Source of the DNA: Aeropyrum pernix K1
GTDB lineage: Archaea > Thermoproteota > Thermoprotei_A > Sulfolobales > Acidilobaceae
Reading direction: 5' to 3'
DNA: 32,000 bases
Assembly: GCF_000011125.1 (NCBI RefSeq)
Contig: NC_000854.2
Span: 1,500,001-1,532,000 of the forward strand
Below the pieces are notes generated by a model. It saw nothing but the letters and a program-made list of their open reading frames with translations. It did not search any database and was not told the origin of the DNA. The position numbers and the translations under genes are program-made. Every line of letters starts with the position of its first letter. The stretch's first letter is position 1. Shown here one piece after another: positions 19,404 through 28,663 of the stretch.

Positions 19404-21938
19404 TTGAAGAGCAGGGTGGAGATAGAGCGAGAGGCTATCGAGGTGCTGAAGGATCTCAACAAGGCCGCCGGACCAGGGTTTACAAGGCTGGTGAGGCTTG
19501 TAGGCGCCGCCCTGAGGGCGGCGATACCTAAGAGGCATAGGGTGATGGTAGTCATCAGCGGCTCCGACCCTGTAAGGGTGGGCGCTGGCACCGCCAGGCT
19601 CCTCCTCTACTTTGAGAGGGTTTACCGCAGGACCGTTGAGAGGAGGCCCCTCAAGGTGCTCTACATGTTCCACGACGAGTTCGACGACGCCAGGCTCAGG
19701 AAGGAGATTGTGAAGAGGGCTGTCAAGGAGAAGGGGAGCATGCTAGAGCAGGTTACCGCTAGGTACGAGGAGAGCGACAGGTACTTGGGGACAACGTTCC
19801 AGGCGCTCGTCCTGGACCTGACCAACGATCTAAAGCCTAACGACGTGGGGAGGCTGGTGGAGGTTGTCGAGGGAGGCGGCCTCATAATACTGCAGGCGCC
19901 CTCCTGGGAGAGGTGGGACACGGCTCTCACGCTCTTCAAGAAGAACCTCCTGGTCCCGGGGCATGAGGAGCCCAGGCACATATTCATTTCCTGGTTTAAG
20001 AGGAAGCTCCTCGAGCATAACAGGGGTATCATAGTCTACGACGCCGACTCCAGGAAGATACTGAGCGGGGAGCCCGAGGATCCGGGAGAATACAGGAGGC
20101 GGGAGCCCAAGCCTCCCAAGAAGAGCCTCTTCCCGCCGGAGGTCTACAGGCTGGCGCTCACGCAGGACCAGCTTGAGGCGGTCAGGCTGATGGAGTGGCT
20201 CTACGACAAGCCGCCTCGTGGTAGGAAGAAGATGATTGTGATAACGGCCGATAGGGGGCGGGGGAAGAGCAGTGCACTCGGCATCGGCCTGGTTGCCCTG
20301 GCCCACGAGCTTGGCAAGGTTAAGCATAGGGTGAGGATCATAGTGACCGCCCCTAGCCCGAGCAACGTCCAGAGCCTCATGGAGCTGGCTATAAAGACCG
20401 CCGAGACTCTGGGCTTGGAGCCGAAGCCCGTCAGGAGGGGGGGCCGGATAATAGAGGTTCAGGGGAGGAAGTTCAGCCTCGAGTACTGGGAGCCGGCCAC
20501 CGTTGTGAGGCTCCAGGGGGACATAGTGGCGGTTGACGAGGCAAGCGGCATACACGTACCCCTCCTCCACAAGATATGGAGGGCGCATAGGAGGCTCGTG
20601 TTCTCGGCCACGATACACGGCTACGAGGGCGCGGGCAGGGGCTTCAACGTAAGATTCCTCTCCGCCGTGAAGAAGAGCGGCGACACCATCATAAGGGAGT
20701 TCAAGATGGAGGAGCCCATTAGGTATGCCCCCGGCGACCCGATAGAGAGATGGCTCTACAACACCCTACTCCTAAACGCAGAGCCGGCGGAGCTCGACGA
20801 GGACGACCTGAGGGATATAAGGGAGGGGAGGCTCGAGTACCTCAGGCTCGACCCCCAGTGGCTGTTCAGCCCCGAGGGCGAGGAGACGCTGAGGCAGCTT
20901 TTCGGCATCTACGTGCTCGCCCACTACAGGAACGAGCCCGACGACCTGGGGATGCTGGCGGACGCCCCTCACCATAGCATAAGGGCTGTGAGGACCGCGG
21001 GTAAGGGCAAGATAGTTAGCGCAGCCCAGGTTGCGGAGGAAGGCGGCCTGGGGGAGGAGCTCATAGACAGGCTGCTTAGGGGGGAGAAGATAGCGGGCAA
21101 CATCATACCCGACAGGATGCTCAAGCACGCCAGGATAAGGGAGTTCGGCAGGATGGTGGGATGGAGGATAGTTAGGATAGCCACCCACCCGGAGGTCCAG
21201 GGCCGGGGTATTGGTAGCTGGCTCCTGGAAAGGCTCTACGAGGAGAGCGTCGAGAGGGGCTACGACTGGCTGGGCAGCGGCTTCGGCATAAACGAGCAGC
21301 TCCTAAGGTTCTGGCTCAGGAACGGCTTCCTAGTGCTCCACCTCAGCCCTGATAGGAACCCGGTGAGCGGAGAGTATACGAGCCTGGTCATGAAGCCCAT
21401 AACCGGCAGGGCCAGGGCGGCGATAATGATAGCGGCTAGGGAGTTCAAGCTGAAGCTCCTCAACAGCCTCCACGACACCTACAGGGATATGGAGCTTGAG
21501 GACGCTATGCTCCTCCTCGAGATGGAGCCGAGGGCTCTGGAGCCGGGTTACAGGCCCAGGCTCACCAGGATACAGCTTGACAGGCTGTGGATATACAACT
21601 ACGGGCCCATGACCTACGAAGCCGCGACAGACGTTATACACGAGCTGGCTATGGCGTATTGGAAGATGGAGCCAGAGGCCAGGCCGAGGCTAGGCGATCT
21701 GGAGAGGAGGGTTCTCGTCGCCAAGGTACTGCAGGCTAAGAGCTGGGGCGAGGTGGCCCAGGAGCTGGGGGTCAGGGAGCACAAGGTCATGACAACGCTT
21801 AAAGAAGCGGTCAGGAGAATGTCCCGGGAGCTCTTCGGCCTCGCCGAAGACTCTAGAGTCGGGGTGGAGCTGCATGAGCTTGGCCAGCATGGGGAAGGGG
21901 AGCTGCGAGATATACAGGCTGGACCCAGAGAGGCCTGA
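19404..21938 (+). CDS. tmcA: tRNA(Met) cytidine acetyltransferase TmcA (Kre33/NAT10 homolog)
   Basis: 844 aa. The N-terminal HRVMVVISGSD is DUF1726-like. The helicase P-loop is ITADRGRGKSSALG. The GNAT region is RIVRIATHPEVQGRGIGSWLL. A C-terminal tail domain follows. TTG start. Confidence 0.9.
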   Translation: MKSRVEIEREAIEVLKDLNKAAGPGFTRLVRLVGAALRAAIPKRHRVMVVISGSDPVRVGAGTARLLLYFERVYRRTVERRPLKVLYMFHDEFDDARLRKEIVKRAVKEKGSMLEQVTARYEESDRYLGTTFQALVLDLTNDLKPNDVGRLVEVVEGGGLIILQAPSWERWDTALTLFKKNLLVPGHEEPRHIFISWFKRKLLEHNRGIIVYDADSRKILSGEPEDPGEYRRREPKPPKKSLFPPEVYRLALTQDQLEAVRLMEWLYDKPPRGRKKMIVITADRGRGKSSALGIGLVALAHELGKVKHRVRIIVTAPSPSNVQSLMELAIKTAETLGLEPKPVRRGGRIIEVQGRKFSLEYWEPATVVRLQGDIVAVDEASGIHVPLLHKIWRAHRRLVFSATIHGYEGAGRGFNVRFLSAVKKSGDTIIREFKMEEPIRYAPGDPIERWLYNTLLLNAEPAELDEDDLRDIREGRLEYLRLDPQWLFSPEGEETLRQLFGIYVLAHYRNEPDDLGMLADAPHHSIRAVRTAGKGKIVSAAQVAEEGGLGEELIDRLLRGEKIAGNIIPDRMLKHARIREFGRMVGWRIVRIATHPEVQGRGIGSWLLERLYEESVERGYDWLGSGFGINEQLLRFWLRNGFLVLHLSPDRNPVSGEYTSLVMKPITGRARAAIMIAAREFKLKLLNSLHDTYRDMELEDAMLLLEMEPRALEPGYRPRLTRIQLDRLWIYNYGPMTYEAATDVIHELAMAYWKMEPEARPRLGDLERRVLVAKVLQAKSWGEVAQELGVREHKVMTTLKEAVRRMSRELFGLAEDSRVGVELHELGQHGEGELRDIQAGPREA

Positions 21939-22977
21939 CAGGAGGGCTATAGAGAGGGCGGCCGAGGTCCTGAGGCGAGGGGGGCTGGTGGCGTTCCCGA
22001 CGGAGACTGTCTACGGCCTGGGGGCTGACGCCCTGAACCCGAGGGCCGCCGCAAGGATATTTGAGGTGAAGGGGAGGCCCCCCGACAACCCCCTGATAGT
22101 ACACGTGTCCAGCCTGGAGATGGCCAGGACTGTGGCCGAGATCCCTGGTAAGGCTCTTAGACTTGTAGAGAAGCTCTGGCCAGGACCCCTGACGCTCGTG
22201 CTGCCGAGGAAGCCTGTAGTGCCGGATATAGTCACAGCTGGCCTAGAAACCGTGGCCGTGAGAATGCCCGCCCACAAGGTTGCCCTAGAGCTGGTGAAGG
22301 CTGCTGGCAGGCCTGTTGCGGCGCCGAGCGCTAACCCCAGCGGGAGGCCCAGCCCAACAAGTGGAGAGCATGTAATAAGGGATCTTGACTGCATGGTCGA
22401 CGTCATACTGGACGCGGGGGAAACCTACTTCGGCGTCGAGTCCACAATAATAGATCTAACGCGGACGCCCCCAGTGCTCCTAAGGCCCGGCCCAATACCC
22501 GTCGAGGTCCTTGAACGGCTGTTGGAGGAGAAGATACTCGTGCCCCCCGAGGCGCGAGGCCTGAGGGCCGCGGACAGGCCTCTGGCGCCGGGCATGAAGT
22601 ACAGGCACTACGCCCCCGACACTCCACTCATACTGGTGGACACGAGCCCTGGAGCTGTCGAGAGGATTGTTGAGGCTGCTGTTAGGGAGGTGGCGAGGGC
22701 CCGGGGGCTCCGGGTTGCCCTGGTCGGCCCCGACGAGCTTGTCGACGTTGTAGCCCTTCTTCTAAGGCTCCGTGGCGTGGAACCGGCGGCGATCTTCAGG
22801 CTGGGTCCTCTCGCCGATACTACTGTCGCCGCCAGGAGGCTGTTCAAAACCCTGCGCCGCATAGACGAGCTCGGCAACATCGATGTCGCCATAGTACTGC
22901 CGTTCCCGGAAAGGGGGATAGGCCTAGCTGTCATGAACAGGCTTAGAAAAGCAGCGTCTAGAAGGGTTGGAGCCTAG
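21889..22977 (+). CDS. sua5: L-threonylcarbamoyladenylate synthase Sua5 (YrdC domain + Sua5 C-terminal domain)
   Basis: AAEVLRRGGLVAFPTETVYGLGADA, FEVKGRPPDNPLIVHV and APSANPSGRPSPT. The long form is about 360 aa. ATG 21889 or ATG 21874. Both overlap the tmcA 3' end. Confidence 0.9.
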   Translation: MGKGSCEIYRLDPERPDRRAIERAAEVLRRGGLVAFPTETVYGLGADALNPRAAARIFEVKGRPPDNPLIVHVSSLEMARTVAEIPGKALRLVEKLWPGPLTLVLPRKPVVPDIVTAGLETVAVRMPAHKVALELVKAAGRPVAAPSANPSGRPSPTSGEHVIRDLDCMVDVILDAGETYFGVESTIIDLTRTPPVLLRPGPIPVEVLERLLEEKILVPPEARGLRAADRPLAPGMKYRHYAPDTPLILVDTSPGAVERIVEAAVREVARARGLRVALVGPDELVDVVALLLRLRGVEPAAIFRLGPLADTTVAARRLFKTLRRIDELGNIDVAIVLPFPERGIGLAVMNRLRKAASRRVGA

Positions 22978-23000: not shown

Positions 23001-24383
23001 CTAGCCGCGGGCGACCCTCCTGGCTATATCCACTATGACACGGGCCACATCCACGGCGGTCCTACCGAGTATCCTCACCATAGGCTCCTTCCCCACTTCA
23101 CCCTCGTCATATATCACGTCCGGAAGCCTGCCGAGGCTCTCGTAAGCGCTCCTAAGCATCCAGGGGAGAGTCCCGCCTTCGCGAGCCTTAACGTCGGGCG
23201 GTTCAGCGCGCCTGTCACCTCTGTAGGTGAGGAGGCCGAGGTCCTCTGCAGCCCTTACTACATCCTTTGAATATTTGATGTTGCCCGCCGCCCGGATGTC
23301 GGGGTTAACGCTCATGGCTGCAAGGACCAGGCGGGCCATATGCCTCGAGGCTCCGAACTCCGGCTTACCCTTAAAGACCAGCCTCCCCATGTGGACCCCT
23401 ATCCTGCCCGGGAATGCAGCCACGTCCAAGGGGGTCCTGGCGTAGGGGTATGGGATGGCCATTGCAATGTTCATGAGGACCTCAGGAACTAGGGTGTGGA
23501 CAACGTCTTCAGCCTGCCTCAGAGTCTCCCCCGCCTTCTCTAGGTTCTCGAGGACCTCCCACCTACCAGCGGGTATTGCCTGCCAGGCCACAGGGTTTAC
23601 GGGGCCGTGGCCACCTCCTATCTCCAGCCCGTAATCTACGGCGACTGTTATGAACTTCTTGGCAACATCCACCGCCTCCTCCACGCTTCTCCCCTTCGCC
23701 AGCCCGGCGGCTATGGCGGCGCTGAAGGCGCAGCCCGTGCCGTGGGTTGTAGCCTTCTCTATCCTCCGCTCCTTGAAGAGCCTGTACTCCCCCCTGTGGT
23801 ATAGGACGTCCACCACGTACTCCCCCCTGAGGTGGCCTCCCTTGACGACAGCCGCCTCCGCCCCCAGCTCCTCTACTATGATCCTAGCCGCCTCCCTAGC
23901 TGTGTCGAGGTCTACGACCTTTACGCCGGTGAGGACCTCGGCCTCGGGGGCGTTCGGCGTTACAATTGTTGCACGGGGTATCACGAGTTTCTTCAACGCT
24001 TCCTCCGCCTCGGGCTTGAGCAGCCTGGCCCCGCTCTTGGCAACCATAACCGGGTCTACAACAAGGGGGAAGCCGTACTCGTCAACCACCTCGGCCACAG
24101 CCTTGATTATCCCCGTGTTGCTGAGCATGCCCGTCTTAGCGGCGTCCACCCCCAGGTCGTCGGCCACAGCCTCTACCTGGGCCTTCACAACATCTGGAGG
24201 CACGTCGTGTATAGCCCTGACCTCCATGGTGTTCTGGGCTGTAATGCTTGTTATGGCGGAGGCGCCGTGGACGCCCATGACGGCGAACGTCTTGAGATCG
24301 GCCTGTATACCCGCACCTCCACCGCTGTCGCTGCCCGCGATTGTAAGTGCGACGGGGATCCTAGTCTTCCTAACGGGGGGCAT
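23001..24383 (-). CDS. thiDN: Bifunctional HMP/HMP-P kinase + ThiN-type thiamine-phosphate synthase (ThiDN)
   Basis: The N-terminal ThiD half has LTIAGSDSGGGAGIQADLKTF and TGCAFSAAIAAGLA. The C-terminal ~190 aa is a ThiN-type domain, as in archaeal ThiDN. ATG 24383 follows GGAGGTG. The ORF track starts at GTG 24395. Confidence 0.85.
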   Translation of the reverse strand: MPPVRKTRIPVALTIAGSDSGGGAGIQADLKTFAVMGVHGASAITSITAQNTMEVRAIHDVPPDVVKAQVEAVADDLGVDAAKTGMLSNTGIIKAVAEVVDEYGFPLVVDPVMVAKSGARLLKPEAEEALKKLVIPRATIVTPNAPEAEVLTGVKVVDLDTAREAARIIVEELGAEAAVVKGGHLRGEYVVDVLYHRGEYRLFKERRIEKATTHGTGCAFSAAIAAGLAKGRSVEEAVDVAKKFITVAVDYGLEIGGGHGPVNPVAWQAIPAGRWEVLENLEKAGETLRQAEDVVHTLVPEVLMNIAMAIPYPYARTPLDVAAFPGRIGVHMGRLVFKGKPEFGASRHMARLVLAAMSVNPDIRAAGNIKYSKDVVRAAEDLGLLTYRGDRRAEPPDVKAREGGTLPWMLRSAYESLGRLPDVIYDEGEVGKEPMVRILGRTAVDVARVIVDIARRVARG

Positions 24384-24464
24384 AGACCAGCACACCTCCC
24401 GACCTTGATCCTGTGTTACTTTTTACGCTCTAGTAGTAAAGACTCTTAGCAAATACCCTGCGTG

Positions 24465-25121
24465 CTAGGGGAGGCCCAGCAAAAGCCCTCCCGCCAGGGA
24501 GGCGAGCACCGCTGCAGCAGCAGCCGCATCCCAAGCCCCAGGCCTCCGGACACCGCGAAGACCCCAGTTTCCACGCCTCTCCGCCGGTACCTTGGCGGCT
24601 ATGGCCTCAGCCAGCACAGCTGATGAAGTGAAGGCCGAGGCCAGGAGGGGCACTGCCAGGCCCGCCACCGCCCTCCACCCCCTAAGCCCCCTCCCCCTGA
24701 GGGCGTCGAGGGCCTCTAGCACCTGGCTGATGGAGGCGTCTGCCTGCCTTGCTATGAGTACGGGGAGAACGGCTATCCTGGGGCTAACCCCCATTGCCTC
24801 TAGGAGGCGCCGTAGCTCGTGGAGACCCACCATGGATAGGCTCCCGCTGGATGCCAGGGCTACCGAGAGGACTCTGAGGGAGGTGTCGACCGCAGTCTCT
24901 AGGCCGTGGAATATCCAGACTACAGCAACTGTCGGCACGGCCAGCCAGAGAACGAGGCCTGGGGCGCGGGTGAAGACCCCTCCCGCCAGTGCTAGGGAGG
25001 CGCCTAGGAGGGTTGCCGTTATGGGCTTGTCTAGGTATAATAGGGTGAAAACAGCGGCTATCGCTAGAACCGCTGTAACCGGGTGTAGCCTGGGCTTCAC
25101 CGCGTGACACCTAAAACGCAC
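24465..25121 (-). CDS. ecfT: ECF transporter transmembrane (T) component
   Basis: 218 aa hydrophobic protein directly downstream of, and overlapping, two ECF-type ATPase genes. It contains Arg-rich cytoplasmic helices (ELRRLLEAMG, ALRGRG). It is shorter than a typical EcfT/CbiQ. Confidence 0.6.
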   Translation of the reverse strand: MRFRCHAVKPRLHPVTAVLAIAAVFTLLYLDKPITATLLGASLALAGGVFTRAPGLVLWLAVPTVAVVWIFHGLETAVDTSLRVLSVALASSGSLSMVGLHELRRLLEAMGVSPRIAVLPVLIARQADASISQVLEALDALRGRGLRGWRAVAGLAVPLLASAFTSSAVLAEAIAAKVPAERRGNWGLRGVRRPGAWDAAAAAAVLASLAGGLLLGLP

Positions 25122-25801
25122 CTGGCAGTGCAGAGAGGGTCTAGACCCCGCTCCAGAGCAGCCTTAACCGCAGGCCCAGGCTCAAGCCCCAGACCGGTCT
25201 CCTCCGGTAGCATCCGTAGAACCCTCTCCATATCACCCGAAACCCTAACCCTGCCGTCCCTTAGGATGACGGCCCAGCCCGCCACGGCTGCAGCGAAATC
25301 TATGTCGTGGCCCGCAACGAGGACAGGCACGCCCAGCCTAGCTATGAGGCTTGCCAGCCACCTCTTCCCACTACCGTCCAGACCGCTTGTAGGCTCGTCG
25401 ATAACCACCGCCTCCGGCCCCCAAGATATGGCCATGAGGACTGAGAGTATCCTGGCCTCCCCCATGCTGAGCGTGTATGGACTCCTCTCCGAAGCGTACT
25501 CTAGTCCCGCCTCCCTCAGCAGCTTAAGCGCCTCTCCCCTCCCGCCCGCAGTCCTGGCGAGGTCCTCAGCCACTGTAGGGCCTAGGAAGCCTAGGTAGGG
25601 GTTCTGTAGCGCCGCCCCCACCCTCCTGGGCCCCTCGACGCTGCCCCTATCCGGCTTGAGCAGCCTTGCGGCGAGTTTTAGGAGTGTGGTCTTGCCGCTC
25701 CCGTTGGCTCCCAGAATGGCTGTTACGCCTCGGGGTATTGAGAGCGTCACATCCCTAAGCCTCCCCCTAACCGTCACCCCTCGGAACACCCATACTCGCA
25801 A
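25097..25801 (-). CDS. ecfA2: ECF/ABC transporter ATPase component (second ATPase)
   Basis: Walker A GANGSGKTT, signature LSMGE, Walker B VVIDEPTSGLD. Confidence 0.85.
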   Translation of the reverse strand: MRVWVFRGVTVRGRLRDVTLSIPRGVTAILGANGSGKTTLLKLAARLLKPDRGSVEGPRRVGAALQNPYLGFLGPTVAEDLARTAGGRGEALKLLREAGLEYASERSPYTLSMGEARILSVLMAISWGPEAVVIDEPTSGLDGSGKRWLASLIARLGVPVLVAGHDIDFAAAVAGWAVILRDGRVRVSGDMERVLRMLPEETGLGLEPGPAVKAALERGLDPLCTARCVLGVTR

Positions 25802-26487
25802 CCATCAACACCCCGCAGGCCGGGCTCCAGAATGCCCGCCAGGACCTCGACCGCCTCACCAGGCCCAAGCTGCTTGGCCCTTCCGTCGTACACGAGGTAC
25901 ACGCTGCTGGCGGCAGGCAGGAGATAGTGGACCCTATGCTCCGCCACAACCACTCCCTCAACGTCCAGCCTTCGCAGCAGCCTGATCAGGCTCTCAACCC
26001 CGAGGGGGTCCTGGTAGGCGAGGGGCTCGTCCATAAGCAGCACCTCGGCACCCAGCGCTAGGGCGCTTGCTATGGCGACCCTCTGCCTCTCTCCCGCGGA
26101 GAGTTTGGAGACCCTTCTGTCCAGGAGGTCCTCGATGCCGAGCTCCTCGGCGAGCCTCACAGCCTCCCTCCTAGCCTCCCAGGGCGGGAGCCCCGAGGCC
26201 TCGTAGCAGTACTCCAGCTCCTCCCTGGGTGTGAGCGAGAGTATGAAGAGATCGTAATCCTGGGGGACTAGCACGGGCTTACCACGGGCCTCCACCTCCC
26301 CTCTCAAATAACCCCCATATATCCTTGTGGCCAGCCCCGCGGCAACCCTTAGTATCGTAGACTTCCCGCCCCCCGTGGGGCCGGCGAGAAGCGTTATACC
26401 CCGGGGAGCCTCTAGGCTGACGCCCCTCAAAACCCACCCGCCACCAGGGTAGCGGTACCAAACATCCCTGAGGCGGACCACGCTCAA
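25774..26487 (-). CDS. ecfA1: ECF/ABC transporter ATPase component (first ATPase)
   Basis: Walker A GPTGGGKST, signature LSAGERQRV, Walker B LLMDEPLAYQD. TTG 26487 forms a TTGA overlap with the stop of the upstream P-loop gene. The ORF track extends to 26559. Confidence 0.85.
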   Translation of the reverse strand: MSVVRLRDVWYRYPGGGWVLRGVSLEAPRGITLLAGPTGGGKSTILRVAAGLATRIYGGYLRGEVEARGKPVLVPQDYDLFILSLTPREELEYCYEASGLPPWEARREAVRLAEELGIEDLLDRRVSKLSAGERQRVAIASALALGAEVLLMDEPLAYQDPLGVESLIRLLRRLDVEGVVVAEHRVHYLLPAASSVYLVYDGRAKQLGPGEAVEVLAGILEPGLRGVDGCEYGCSEG

Positions 26488-26993
26488 ACCCTCCACACCC
26501 TCCCCAAAACCTCCCCCAGGATAGCCACCATCCTGGCCTCCCTCGCAGCTATACCACACCCCAAACCCAGGCTCCCGCCCAGGTAGGCGTTCACAACGCT
26601 GGCCTTATGTGAAGACACGGCTTTCAGCAGCAGGCCTAGGCTGCCGGAGTGGAGGTGTATCGTGGCGTCGTTGACGACAAGAACGTCGCCAGGCTCCACA
26701 GCAGCTCTCTCCAGGACTCTACTGGTCTGCTCTGCGTTGTGGCGGGCCAGCTCCCAGGCCAGCCTGCAGTCTCCCCGGGACTCTAGCCTGGGCGCCCTCA
26801 GCCCCCGGGGCCTTAGAACCCTGGCCCCGGGTATGGGAGGGAGGGGCTTTCCAACGCCCGCCACGTCGGGGGCTAGGTCTACGGCCACTATTTCCAGACC
26901 AAGCCCTGCTAGAAGGCTGGCTATATGCCACGTCAGCCTCGTCTTACCCCTCCCCTGCTCCCCCACTATCAGGAGGCCTGAGCCGTACAACAC
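26484..26993 (-). CDS. Small P-loop NTPase of unknown function
   Basis: 169 aa. Walker A LLIVGEQGRGKT lies at the extreme N-terminus. VLVVNDAT is Walker-B-like. It fills the only gap between thiW and ecfA1 on the same strand. The TTG start overlaps the thiW tail by 50 nt. Confidence 0.6.
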   Translation of the reverse strand: MLYGSGLLIVGEQGRGKTRLTWHIASLLAGLGLEIVAVDLAPDVAGVGKPLPPIPGARVLRPRGLRAPRLESRGDCRLAWELARHNAEQTSRVLERAAVEPGDVLVVNDATIHLHSGSLGLLLKAVSSHKASVVNAYLGGSLGLGCGIAAREARMVAILGEVLGRVWRV

Positions 26994-27516
26994 CGCTCCT
27001 CTCCAACGCGACGAGCGCCGCCAAACCGAGGGTAGTTCCTATGAGTGTGCTAGAAAGCCAGCCCAGCCATATAACGGTTAGTGCGCTCCTCCAGGCCTCC
27101 ACATCCCCCATGAGGGGGGCGAAAACGTAGAGCGCCAGGAGGAATCCTATGACAGCAGTGCCGAGGGGCTCCAGGAGCCCCGCAGGTAGGGGGCTCCTCC
27201 CCAGCCTCAGAAGGGCTACTGCACCCAAACCCACAAGGAGAGCCCCAGGTATGCCGCCTGGGATGCTGTACACAGTCCCAATGCCAAGAGCCATCCTAAC
27301 AAGACCCACGGCAAGGGCGAGACCGCTAGCCCACCATGGCCCGAGGGTGACACCTGCAACCACGTTCACCATGTGCTGCCACGGCAAAGCCTTAGTAGGC
27401 CCCACATCAATCCTTATGACGCTGAGGGCGACCGCAAGCCCGCCTAAAATGGCGGCAAGGGCAAGCTTCCTCTCAGGCCCGAGATGGCTGAGGCTCACCA
27501 ACACCACCCTTACCAC
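26944..27516 (-). CDS. thiW: ECF transporter substrate-specific (S) component, ThiW-like (thiazole precursor)
   Basis: About 190 aa hydrophobic protein. QHMVNVVAGVTLGPWWA, ...YSIPGGIPGALL and EPLGTAVIG match my recollection of the ThiW family pattern. It is first in an operon with ECF ATPases, a T component and thiDN. GTG 27516 lies about 30 nt downstream of a strong TATA box. The ORF-track extension to 27693 runs through that promoter. Confidence 0.6.
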   Translation of the reverse strand: MVRVVLVSLSHLGPERKLALAAILGGLAVALSVIRIDVGPTKALPWQHMVNVVAGVTLGPWWASGLALAVGLVRMALGIGTVYSIPGGIPGALLVGLGAVALLRLGRSPLPAGLLEPLGTAVIGFLLALYVFAPLMGDVEAWRSALTVIWLGWLSSTLIGTTLGLAALVALERSGVVRLRPPDSGGAGEG

Positions 27517-27543
27517 TGGCCAATAGTAAAACCTCACTAGAGT

Positions 27544-27554
27544 ATAAATAAAAG
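27544..27554 (-). promoter_or_regulatory. TATA box for the thiW operon
   Basis: The minus strand reads ttttatttata, centred about 33 nt upstream of GTG 27516. This is consistent with a leaderless or short-leader transcript. Confidence 0.45.
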
Positions 27555-27597
27555 TCCCGTTAATTAGGCTGCCGTCCCGATGAATGGAGTCTTTAAG

Positions 27598-27611
27598 GTA
27601 ACCTAGGTTAC
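27598..27611. promoter_or_regulatory. Perfect 14-bp palindrome GTAACCTAGGTTAC upstream of the thiW promoter
   Basis: Checked base by base to be its own reverse complement. It lies about 50 nt upstream of the thiW TATA box. Confidence 0.3.
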
Positions 27612-27909
27612 GACTGCAGAGGCCGAGCCTTACAGCATCAATGAGTGGCTGAGTAAACGGCAGACGGCTTCTAAGCTCGAAAGATCTTCGCAATATTGGA
27701 ATGGAGGAACTCCGATCTTAGTATACTGGGGAAGAATAATAATATCGTTGATTAGGCTCGTGCAATACTTGTAGCTAGATAGGATAAAAGAAAAGCTGAA
27801 ATTTATATCATTAGGTTGCTATGCTTGAAGAAGATGTTTATAACTCTTTTTGTACACTATAATATATTGAATTTTGTAAATAGTCTGTTTATTCCCTGGT
27901 CTGATATAT

Positions 27910-28260
27910 ATGGGTAACACTAAAAAAGAGAGAGCCAGCTCGAGATGTAAGGATGAATTTATGCAGTTTCTTAACAAGCTCATAACACTCTATGAAAGAG
28001 ACCCCAAGATAAAAATCCTCCTCTACTTAGCAGATTTGGCAGAACCGTCCTCCATTAGGAGGATTTCAAGGAACGTAGGGATGAGCCATAAAAACGTGAT
28101 TAAACATTTGAAGGCGTTGGAGAATATAGGCCTAGTTGAGGTGGCATATAAACAATCTAACCTTACCTTGTATAAGCTATCGGAACACTCTAGATTATGG
28201 ACACTACAGTTTATAAAGTGTAGACTCTACAATGCTATCACAGATGAAATAGTAGTTTAA
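27910..28260 (+). CDS. ArsR/winged-helix DNA-binding protein encoded in the AT-rich islet
   Basis: 116 aa. KILLYLADLAEPSSIRRISRNVGMSHKNVIKHLKALENIGLVEVAYKQSNLTLYKL is an HTH plus wing. The AT-rich codon usage differs from all neighbours. A TATA-like tataatatatt lies about 45 nt upstream. Confidence 0.7.
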   Translation: MGNTKKERASSRCKDEFMQFLNKLITLYERDPKIKILLYLADLAEPSSIRRISRNVGMSHKNVIKHLKALENIGLVEVAYKQSNLTLYKLSEHSRLWTLQFIKCRLYNAITDEIVV

Positions 28261-28584
28261 AGCGGGGCTTAAGCTACGAAGGTCCTTTTAAACATACCTC
28301 AATATAAGCCTTCTACCCTCCTGGTAATTTAGTTAATTAAACATGAAAGATGAGATGCATCTTCTCTTTACTGTCCAATCGCCAAAACCTAAATCTCTAA
28401 GAAGCTAGAGCAGAAATAAGAGCTAAAGTTTAGTAAAGACACTGTCTCTCAAACGATTTGCAAGTATACATCCAGAAACCAGTCTCCCATGCTTTAGATC
28501 CGAAATGGCTTGAGAAGAGTTTCTCGGTTCTTCGAAAACAGTATGAAACGGAGAGGTTGGAAAGAGTTTAGCTATTAAAATGCC

Positions 28585-28663
28585 TGGTGCGGCCGCCGGG
28601 ATTTGAACCCGGGACCACCGGCTTGGAAGGCCGGCGTCCTAGTCCAGGCTAGACGACGGCCGC
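28585..28663 (-). tRNA. tRNA-Gly (anticodon UCC), with encoded CCA
   Basis: The reverse complement is GCGGCCGUCGUCUAGCCUGGACUAGGACGCCGGCCUUCCAAGCCGGUGGUCCCGGGUUCAAAUCCCGGCGGCCGCACCA. It folds as a cloverleaf: 7-bp acceptor, GUCU/GGAC D-stem, CCGGC/GCCGG anticodon stem with loop CUUCCAA, and CCGGG/CCCGG T-stem with loop UUCAAAU. Confidence 0.9.

Follow-up and report, generated by a model that had tools for sequence, protein, structure and literature searches.

The operon described here lies in a window of 32,000 nucleotides of the Aeropyrum pernix K1 genome (contig NC_000854.2, positions 1,500,001 to 1,532,000 of the forward strand); the window is this whole stretch, and all positions below are counted from its first letter. 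On one strand the operon holds, in this order, thiW, an open reading frame (ORF) for a 169-aa P-loop protein, ecfA, ecfA', a putative ecfT, and thiDN. The P-loop ORF, located at 26484..26993 on the minus strand, and the protein family around it are called X. The gene follows thiW (26944..27693, minus strand), which encodes the S component predicted to take up the thiazole moiety as part of an energy-coupling factor (ECF) transporter (Pfam ThiW 2.8e-42, TIGR02359 1.5e-59). The last gene, thiDN (23001..24395, minus strand), encodes a kinase for hydroxymethylpyrimidine (HMP) and its phosphate (HMP-P) fused to a ThiN thiamin-phosphate synthase (Phos_pyr_kin 1.7e-96, ThiN 9.6e-60, NF006346 1.3e-219). 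A first-pass annotation of the window had proposed X, by guilt by association, as a candidate non-orthologous thiazole kinase. The proposal, which had an accessory or regulatory NTPase of the ECF module as its alternative, is supported and considerably strengthened by the linkage of X to ThiW, by its mutual exclusivity with the hydroxyethylthiazole kinase ThiM and by the salvage genes that surround it. We assign a probability of about 0.5 to the reading that X is an ATP-dependent kinase that would trap ThiW-imported thiazole in place of ThiM.

The product of the 169-aa ORF contains an intact Walker A motif (GEQGRGKT, residues 11-18; 26940..26963, minus strand) and an intact Walker B motif (VLVVND, residues 104-109; 26667..26684, minus strand), and the Pfam and NCBIfam annotation of its neighbors bears out a position between thiW and ecfA on the same strand. 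These points agree with the first-pass annotation, as does the TGA stop codon of X, which shares the letters TTGA (26484-26487) with the TTG start of ecfA. The 50-nt overlap of the X and thiW ORFs, by which the Walker A codons also code for the end of ThiW, was likewise described correctly, but the start codon given was not: the ORF opens with GTG at 26993, and TTG comes second, at 26990. Walker A begins at residue 11, or at residue 10 when counted from the TTG, instead of seven residues from the start. A Shine-Dalgarno-like sequence, GGAGAGGAG, is located within the thiW tail (26996..27004, minus strand), 2 nt before the GTG and 5 nt before the TTG. Since this spacing suits the TTG better and the homologue of Aeropyrum camini begins at the same codon, TTG 26990 may be the true start of X, which would shrink the overlap with thiW to 47 nt.

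Homologues were collected by a full hidden Markov model (HMM) scan of 1.84 billion representative sequences with clustering at 50% identity. The scan returned 328 clusters at E ≤ 1e-3, with proteins mostly of 170-210 aa, and 239 clusters at E ≤ 1e-10; a word-indexed search gave 20 relatives. Homologues were 23-87% identical to X, the closest named one being that of A. camini. The family ranges over Thermoproteota and Asgard archaea, with Desulfurococcales, Bathyarchaeia, Nitrososphaerota, a Thermoproteota metagenome-assembled genome (MAG) labelled 'Kor3', Candidatus Wolframiiraptor and the Asgard archaeon Candidatus Borrarchaeum as named sources. In 266 unique members G11, G16, K17, T18, D39, P42, G48, P68, R69, N86, N108, D109, G117, Y137, G139 and E152 were 95-100% conserved. 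Because the ORF has a GC content at third codon positions (GC3) of 0.72, like that of neighboring genes, and because of the homologues in 328 clusters and these conserved residues, X is a real gene, well beyond a chance ORF.

The conserved residues fall into motifs on the predicted fold. The Walker A residues G11, G16, K17 and T18 (98-100% conserved) belong to a GxxxxGK[ST] pattern that follows strand β1, and Walker B is a hydrophobic strand (104-108 in the model) ending in N108 (99%) and D109 (100%). A DLAP motif (26868..26879, minus strand) with D39 (97%) and P42 (100%) is situated at the end of strand β2 (residues 35-39 in the model). In the family alignment the RAPRLE motif (residues 66-71; 26781..26798, minus strand) contains the invariant P68 and R69. 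A Y137-x-G139 motif (26577..26585, minus strand; both residues 99%) follows strand β5, and E152 (26538..26540, minus strand; 100%) is located in the C-terminal helix. D39 is a candidate catalytic carboxylate or base, and R69 may bind the phosphate or the transition state or act as an arginine finger; together with R69, residues N86, Y137 and E152 could be substrate or phosphate ligands.

No model in Pfam or NCBIfam, including the CobU family, was matched by X at threshold. The best match was CbiA with 18.8 bits, below the cut-off of 25.4 and confined to the P-loop region, and sequence and profile searches of the PDB returned P-loop matches only. CbiA, AAA_5, midasin and myosin were rejected as families for X, the similarity being at the level of the P-loop. 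The SIMIBI class (signal recognition particle, MinD and BioD; here MinD/ParA/CbiA, GPN and MobB) was rejected as well, given the subthreshold CbiA score, an E-value of 0.2 for the GPN-type GTPase model NF010340, the lack of any MobB match and the RecA-like fold neighbors. The first-pass annotation had been unable to place X in a named family, and the profile searches likewise assigned it with confidence to no unrelated one; the distant MobB- or GPN-type resemblance that the annotation suggested is not supported. A metallochaperone role, suggested by His and Cys residues of the Aeropyrum group, was discarded, as those residues are not kept across the family. Database labels on members of the family disagree (hypothetical, DUF87, RecA-like ATPase, SAR1 GTPase, EcfA2, HPr kinase, CooC/CooC1) and are automatic. 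Literature searches found no account of the family, with an earlier mention not fully ruled out. Judged from its sequence, we regard X as the founding member, in the window, of an uncharacterised RecA-like family.

AlphaFold 2 models were made of two members, X of the window and a homologue with 40% identity (P0018). The model of the window protein had a mean predicted local distance difference test (pLDDT) score of 91.3 and a predicted template-modelling (TM) score of 0.89. The homologue (pLDDT 90.8) was modelled as an α/β P-loop domain in agreement with it. In Foldseek searches with the window model CobU, the adenosylcobinamide kinase/guanylyltransferase, came first (9vio, 9vis; E 1.5e-4; TM 0.53-0.59), followed by RecA, KaiC, FlaH and CobA. 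With the homologue FlaH, Rho, KaiC and RadA led the list, and CobU was not among the top 50. Matches to RecA, KaiC, FlaH, Rho and CobU had a Foldseek probability of 1.00. Alignment of the X family with Escherichia coli CobU by hhalign covered 24 P-loop columns only, at a probability of 6%. A CobU-like assignment was downgraded, as neither the second model nor hhalign reproduced it.

Taken together, the models robustly point to a minimal RecA-like P-loop domain of the ASCE (additional strand, catalytic E) division with no close solved relative, and to none of the MobB, GPN or SIMIBI types. With Walker A, Walker B and a predicted three-layer α/β fold, X can be placed in the P-loop NTPase superfamily. 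The fold as modelled is neutral between a kinase and an ATPase. RecA, KaiC, FlaH and Rho are fold neighbors of both models and have in common with X the P-loop, Walker B and a carboxylate residue closing β2. TM values to X are only 0.4-0.55, no KaiC or RecA Pfam match exceeded threshold, and X, at about 170 aa, consists of the domain alone and lacks the DNA, RNA or clock modules of these ATPases. Of the PDB structures, CobU fits the Aeropyrum model best; it is of similar size, and its reaction adds phosphate to an alcohol group on a vitamin precursor under salvage. It differs in that sequence similarity is restricted to the P-loop and that its guanylyl-histidine has no obvious equivalent in X. 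EcfA and EcfA' are P-loop proteins of the same Aeropyrum operon, of 234-237 aa as compared to 169 aa for X (about 70%). X gave no match to ABC_tran and has no signature motif, whereas both adjoining ATPase genes matched this model at 1e-16 to 1e-19; most X genes are found without EcfA or EcfA' genes.

All 15 distinct loci with an X member (the window and 14 others) contained ThiW. A narrower alignment of the X family searched against genomes returned 7 loci, Aeropyrum itself not being among them. Aeropyrum-like MAGs keep the order ThiW-X-EcfA-EcfA'-EcfT, with ThiDN present or absent; X is thus present in orthologous operons, from which its absence would, according to the first-pass annotation, speak against the proposed role. 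More distant members occur as ThiW-X-ThiDN without ECF genes or as ThiW-X-carrier-ThiDN, and one locus (L013) has ThiW divergent from X-ThiDN. In the Asgard archaeon Borrarchaeum, whose X shares only 23% identity with that of the window, the gene is convergent with ThiW; genes for an NCS1 carrier and ThiDN come next. Two independent ThiW-X fusions were found (P0096, followed by ThiC, and P0032); in one further case, the operon ThiW-EcfAA'-EcfT::X-ThiDN, X is fused to EcfT.

To survey ThiW itself, metagenomes were scanned with a ThiW alignment and the 80 best ThiW loci were annotated with local HMMs. X was present at 65 of the 80. The gene was located immediately downstream of thiW on the same strand in 49 of these 65 loci, mostly overlapping it by 13-22 nt, and divergently upstream of thiW in 13. 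With ECF-type ATPase genes at only 7 of the 65 loci, X is tied only weakly to the ECF module: it tracks ThiW and ThiDN rather than ECF ATPases. The co-occurrence with thiW, which the first-pass annotation had named as a check, is seen from both sides and extends into Asgard archaea, and the linkage is tight and ancient.

Such linkage could also be produced by an accessory or energising ATPase bound to ThiW. Docked on ThiW or EcfT, X would then gate, regulate (for example by trans-inhibition by thiamin phosphates), assemble or power transport with no phosphorylation of the cargo. The translational coupling of X to thiW, the fusions with ThiW and with EcfT and the RecA, KaiC, FlaH and Rho type fold neighbors are in line with this role, and R69, which does not vary, might serve as an arginine finger. 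Adjacent ECF ATPases are missing at most X loci, so that ThiW might need another motor. Against it, the Aeropyrum operon has a complete EcfA-EcfA'-EcfT set (EcfT putative) and needs no extra motor, and we know of no precedent for a non-ABC (ATP-binding cassette) motor on an ECF S component. Together with the ThiM data described below, these points make an accessory ATPase unlikely in our judgment, though it is the main rival of the kinase reading.

Several X loci deserve separate mention. At two of them (L005 7839-8357 and L006 1040-1558) the deposited homologue, P0014 with 119 aa, is truncated; tblastn revealed a full-length X including the P-loop and overlapping the thiW end. One clade (L038 3465-4817, L045, L052 and L055) has an operon of a 450-aa protein, X and ThiDN divergent from ThiW, and the 450-aa protein gave only weak matches to CobW, HypB and GPN-like GTPases. 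A contig binned as 'Petrotogales bacterium' (L101) has the order MIT-domain protein, X, ThiW on the opposite strand, and NCS1. This is the gene order of the Asgard Ca. Borrarchaeum locus (L100 4905-8683), and the contig is probably a mis-binned archaeal one, not a bacterial member.

The distribution of ThiM (EC 2.7.1.50) over the same 80 ThiW loci was complementary to that of X. X without ThiM was found at 65 loci, ThiM without X at 4, both at none and neither at 11, about half of the latter being short contigs or having ThiW near a contig end. The four loci have true ThiM genes, scoring above 400 bits, that of L041 matching Pfam HK at 4.9e-89. Fisher's exact test for mutual exclusivity, not fully corrected for shared ancestry, gave p = 0.004 when each flank had to be 600 nt or longer, p = 0.007 for 1500 nt and p = 0.013 for 3000 nt, and p = 0.0025 when ThiW sequences were collapsed at 70% identity (X 25, ThiM 3, both 0). 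In a neighbor-joining tree the ThiM-type ThiWs branched at two or three points among X-type ones, and at least one of their groups was from Thermococcales. They were about as similar to the query as X-type ThiWs (43-45% identity). This interleaving implies that ThiW needs no X to function. For the accessory ATPase described above it is unfavorable that such closely interleaved ThiWs work without X wherever ThiM adjoins, and that the absence of ThiM from 65 otherwise pathway-rich clusters would stay unexplained. As similar ThiWs do without X beside ThiM and Aeropyrum has EcfAA'T, replacement of ThiM by X is more parsimonious than a transport motor.

The X loci are rich in thiamin genes. ThiDN was present at 40 of the 65, NCS1 carriers at 9, TenA at 7, ThiC at 6 and ThiL or a ThiL-ThiN fusion at 3, and ThiR-like genes with helix-turn-helix (HTH) and ThiN domains and MFS or APC carriers were found as well. 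Examples are ThiW-X-ThiC-ThiDN (L062) and X/ThiW/NCS1/ThiDN (L100). HMM annotation of these 65 neighborhoods identified neither ThiM nor ThiE, while ThiE stood beside ThiM in all four ThiM-type loci. As a group the X clusters bring together carriers for both moieties of thiamin, the HMP kinase and the coupling enzyme, in many cases with ThiC, TenA, ThiL and a regulator as well. Thiazole phosphorylation is the sole salvage step without a gene in the X clusters. With E. coli ThiM as query, tblastn gave no match in the window or in loci L001-L013, in agreement with the first-pass annotation, which had seen no thiM in the window cluster. Of more than 8000 matches to an archaeal ThiM, the 120 best included no Aeropyrum protein.

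In addition to these two types, a third ThiW neighborhood lacked both X and ThiM. It has the order ThiF-ThiW-DUF2284, the last being a predicted metal-binding protein (L030 4092-6159 and L094). At two loci a ThiL (AIRS/AIRS_C)-ThiN fusion is encoded upstream of ThiW-X-ThiDN-TenA (L073 14-1444, L077 3093-4085), and a separate ThiR-like HTH+ThiN gene was seen nearby (L077 8830-9864; L081 1585-2541).

A gap in a gene cluster need not be a gap in the pathway. Thiazole might be phosphorylated by the ribokinase-fold ThiD part of ThiDN or by a ThiM encoded far away, X being an unrelated housekeeping protein kept near thiW by operon history only. ThiD and ThiM are distantly homologous, with ThiDN matching ThiM models weakly (18-28 bits; NF006830 at 0.0016), and a thiM elsewhere in the genome may have escaped the ThiM survey, which covered gene neighborhoods. 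Operon inertia would not predict a linkage that spans Thermoproteota to Asgard archaea at 23% identity and in at least five gene orders including fusions, and we know of no thiazole kinase activity of ThiD. We consider this explanation very improbable.

A thiazole kinase is favored because thiazole phosphorylation lacks a gene and X is a nucleotide-binding protein that stands beside a thiazole carrier and is absent where ThiM is present. Furthermore, both Walker motifs are intact and do not vary, and a substrate site could be built from other polar residues that are likewise invariant. X would be a soluble enzyme that phosphorylates a small molecule at the expense of ATP; it would belong to a new RecA-like P-loop family and work at the cytoplasmic face of ThiW, on which it may dock. 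There it would convert imported 4-methyl-5-(2-hydroxyethyl)thiazole to thiazole phosphate. This phosphorylation would trap the cargo and supply the second substrate to the ThiN domain of ThiDN, with X standing in for the unrelated ribokinase-fold ThiM.

The same genomic embedding would be expected for a thiamin-metabolism enzyme acting on another substrate. X might be a kinase or other ATP-dependent activator of a modified, for example carboxylated, thiazole precursor, of thiamin, or of adenylated thiazole. To our knowledge the specificity of ThiW has never been measured, and the RecA-like CobU and CobA of cobalamin salvage perform varied nucleotide-dependent chemistry. ThiD and ThiL are encoded separately, however, so that the kinase roles for HMP, HMP-P and thiamin monophosphate are filled, and the complementarity of X is specifically with ThiM. 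An alternative substrate of this kind therefore seems improbable to us.

The following observations weigh against X being a thiazole kinase. The substrate assigned to ThiW is in turn predicted from comparative genomics. The fold neighbors of X are chiefly oligomeric RecA-like ATPases (RecA, KaiC, FlaH and Rho), and the small-molecule kinase CobU tops the list for the Aeropyrum model only. The EcfT-X fusion would suit a transport accessory as well, and shared ancestry may contribute to the exclusivity with ThiM. The absence of ThiM was seen within 5-8 kb of the genes, and some Crenarchaeota carry ThiM-ThiE-ThiL clusters away from any ThiW, so that a thiM far from X may exist in genomes that encode X.

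Comparison with ThiM shows what a replacement would entail. Both proteins occupy a niche beside ThiW and a thiamin-phosphate synthase, the L041 order being ThiM-ThiE-ThiW-ThiDN, and they would share reaction and pathway position if the activity predicted for X is correct. ThiM has an unrelated ribokinase fold, whereas X is a P-loop RecA-like protein of 170-210 aa that gave no match to Pfam HK (PF02110) even at E ≤ 1. ThiM pairs with ThiE (4/4 loci) and X with ThiN-type synthases, never with ThiE. In view of the modelled fold X could only be a functional analogue of ThiM and not an HK family member.

A carrier coupled to a kinase has a precedent. PnuC and the P-loop ribosylnicotinamide kinase domain of NadR form a pair of a facilitator and a trapping kinase. 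As proposed here for X, a carrier for a vitamin precursor is combined with a P-loop kinase in the cytoplasm, which renders uptake irreversible. The carrier and kinase families are different, and the coupling of ThiW to X is proposed from genes. Most likely the X family is new and its probable function, that of a salvage kinase working with a carrier, is known in kind. A more radical reading, plausible but rather doubtful, is that ThiW and X form a self-contained two-protein uptake system, independent of an ECF module. X would dock on a solitary S component, to which it is now and then fused, and would give uptake its direction by vectorial phosphorylation of the incoming thiazole or by ATP-driven gating. 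If true, this would be a new way of energising S-component carriers, widespread in Thermoproteota and Asgard archaea.

Thiamin synthesis cannot use imported thiazole unless it is phosphorylated. A kinase activity of X would close this pathway hole in many archaea, among them Desulfurococcales, Bathyarchaeia, Nitrososphaerota, Korarchaeia-like lineages and Asgard archaea, and EC 2.7.1.50 would have two solutions of unrelated structure. More than 300 sequence clusters that now carry inconsistent labels would gain a function, and it could be predicted better which environmental archaea are auxotrophic for vitamin B1 and how they exchange its precursors. It would also offer a first handle on the coupling of ThiW-type S components to metabolism.

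Of the other genes in the operon, ecfA (25774..26487, minus strand) and ecfA' (25097..25801, minus strand) encode two ABC ATPases, with matches to ABC_tran (4.7e-19 and 4.4e-16, respectively) and to ECF_ATPase_1 (1.8e-21) for the first and ECF_ATPase_2 (3.2e-23) for the second. The putative ecfT (24465..25121, minus strand) encodes a divergent membrane protein whose position is conserved in L001, L005, L007 and L017. It matched no Pfam or NCBIfam model, CbiQ included, and gave a weak match (E = 0.021) to a CbiQ-bearing protein (P0114). From these sequence data the product seems to be a T component that has diverged strongly and is kept in Aeropyrum-like loci. Of the parts expected in a dedicated (group I) ThiW ECF transporter operon, ThiW, EcfA and EcfA' are confirmed by profiles, and the T component is proposed only from its conserved position and the weak match to a CbiQ protein.

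The thiW ORF (249 aa) is over-extended, the ThiW domain beginning near residue 75. GTG 27516 is the probable start of a leaderless thiW, which would give a ThiW of 190 aa. A TATA-like sequence, TTTTATTTATA, about 30 nt upstream of this GTG (27543..27553, minus strand) is a putative operon promoter. The GTG is covered by a 20-nt imperfect palindrome, TTACCACTGGCCAATAGTAA (27510-27529), that could be an operator. No thiamin pyrophosphate riboswitch or other Rfam element was found near the operon.

Between thiW and a tRNA-Gly(tcc) gene (28585-28663) there is an AT-rich island at 27600-28580, with a GC content of 36-40% as compared to about 60% elsewhere. It bears one low-GC3 ORF for an ArsR-type winged-helix protein (27910-28260, plus strand; HTH_5 2e-08) and, lying by the tRNA gene, looks like foreign or remnant integrated DNA. 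A gene for the threonylcarbamoyl-AMP synthase Sua5 adjoins the thi operon both in the window (21874-22977) and in L001 (6253-7392), on opposite sides. In the window it is convergent with thiDN, and in the MAGs, which lack thiDN there, it is directly upstream of thiW. The different positions of Sua5 point to local rearrangement.

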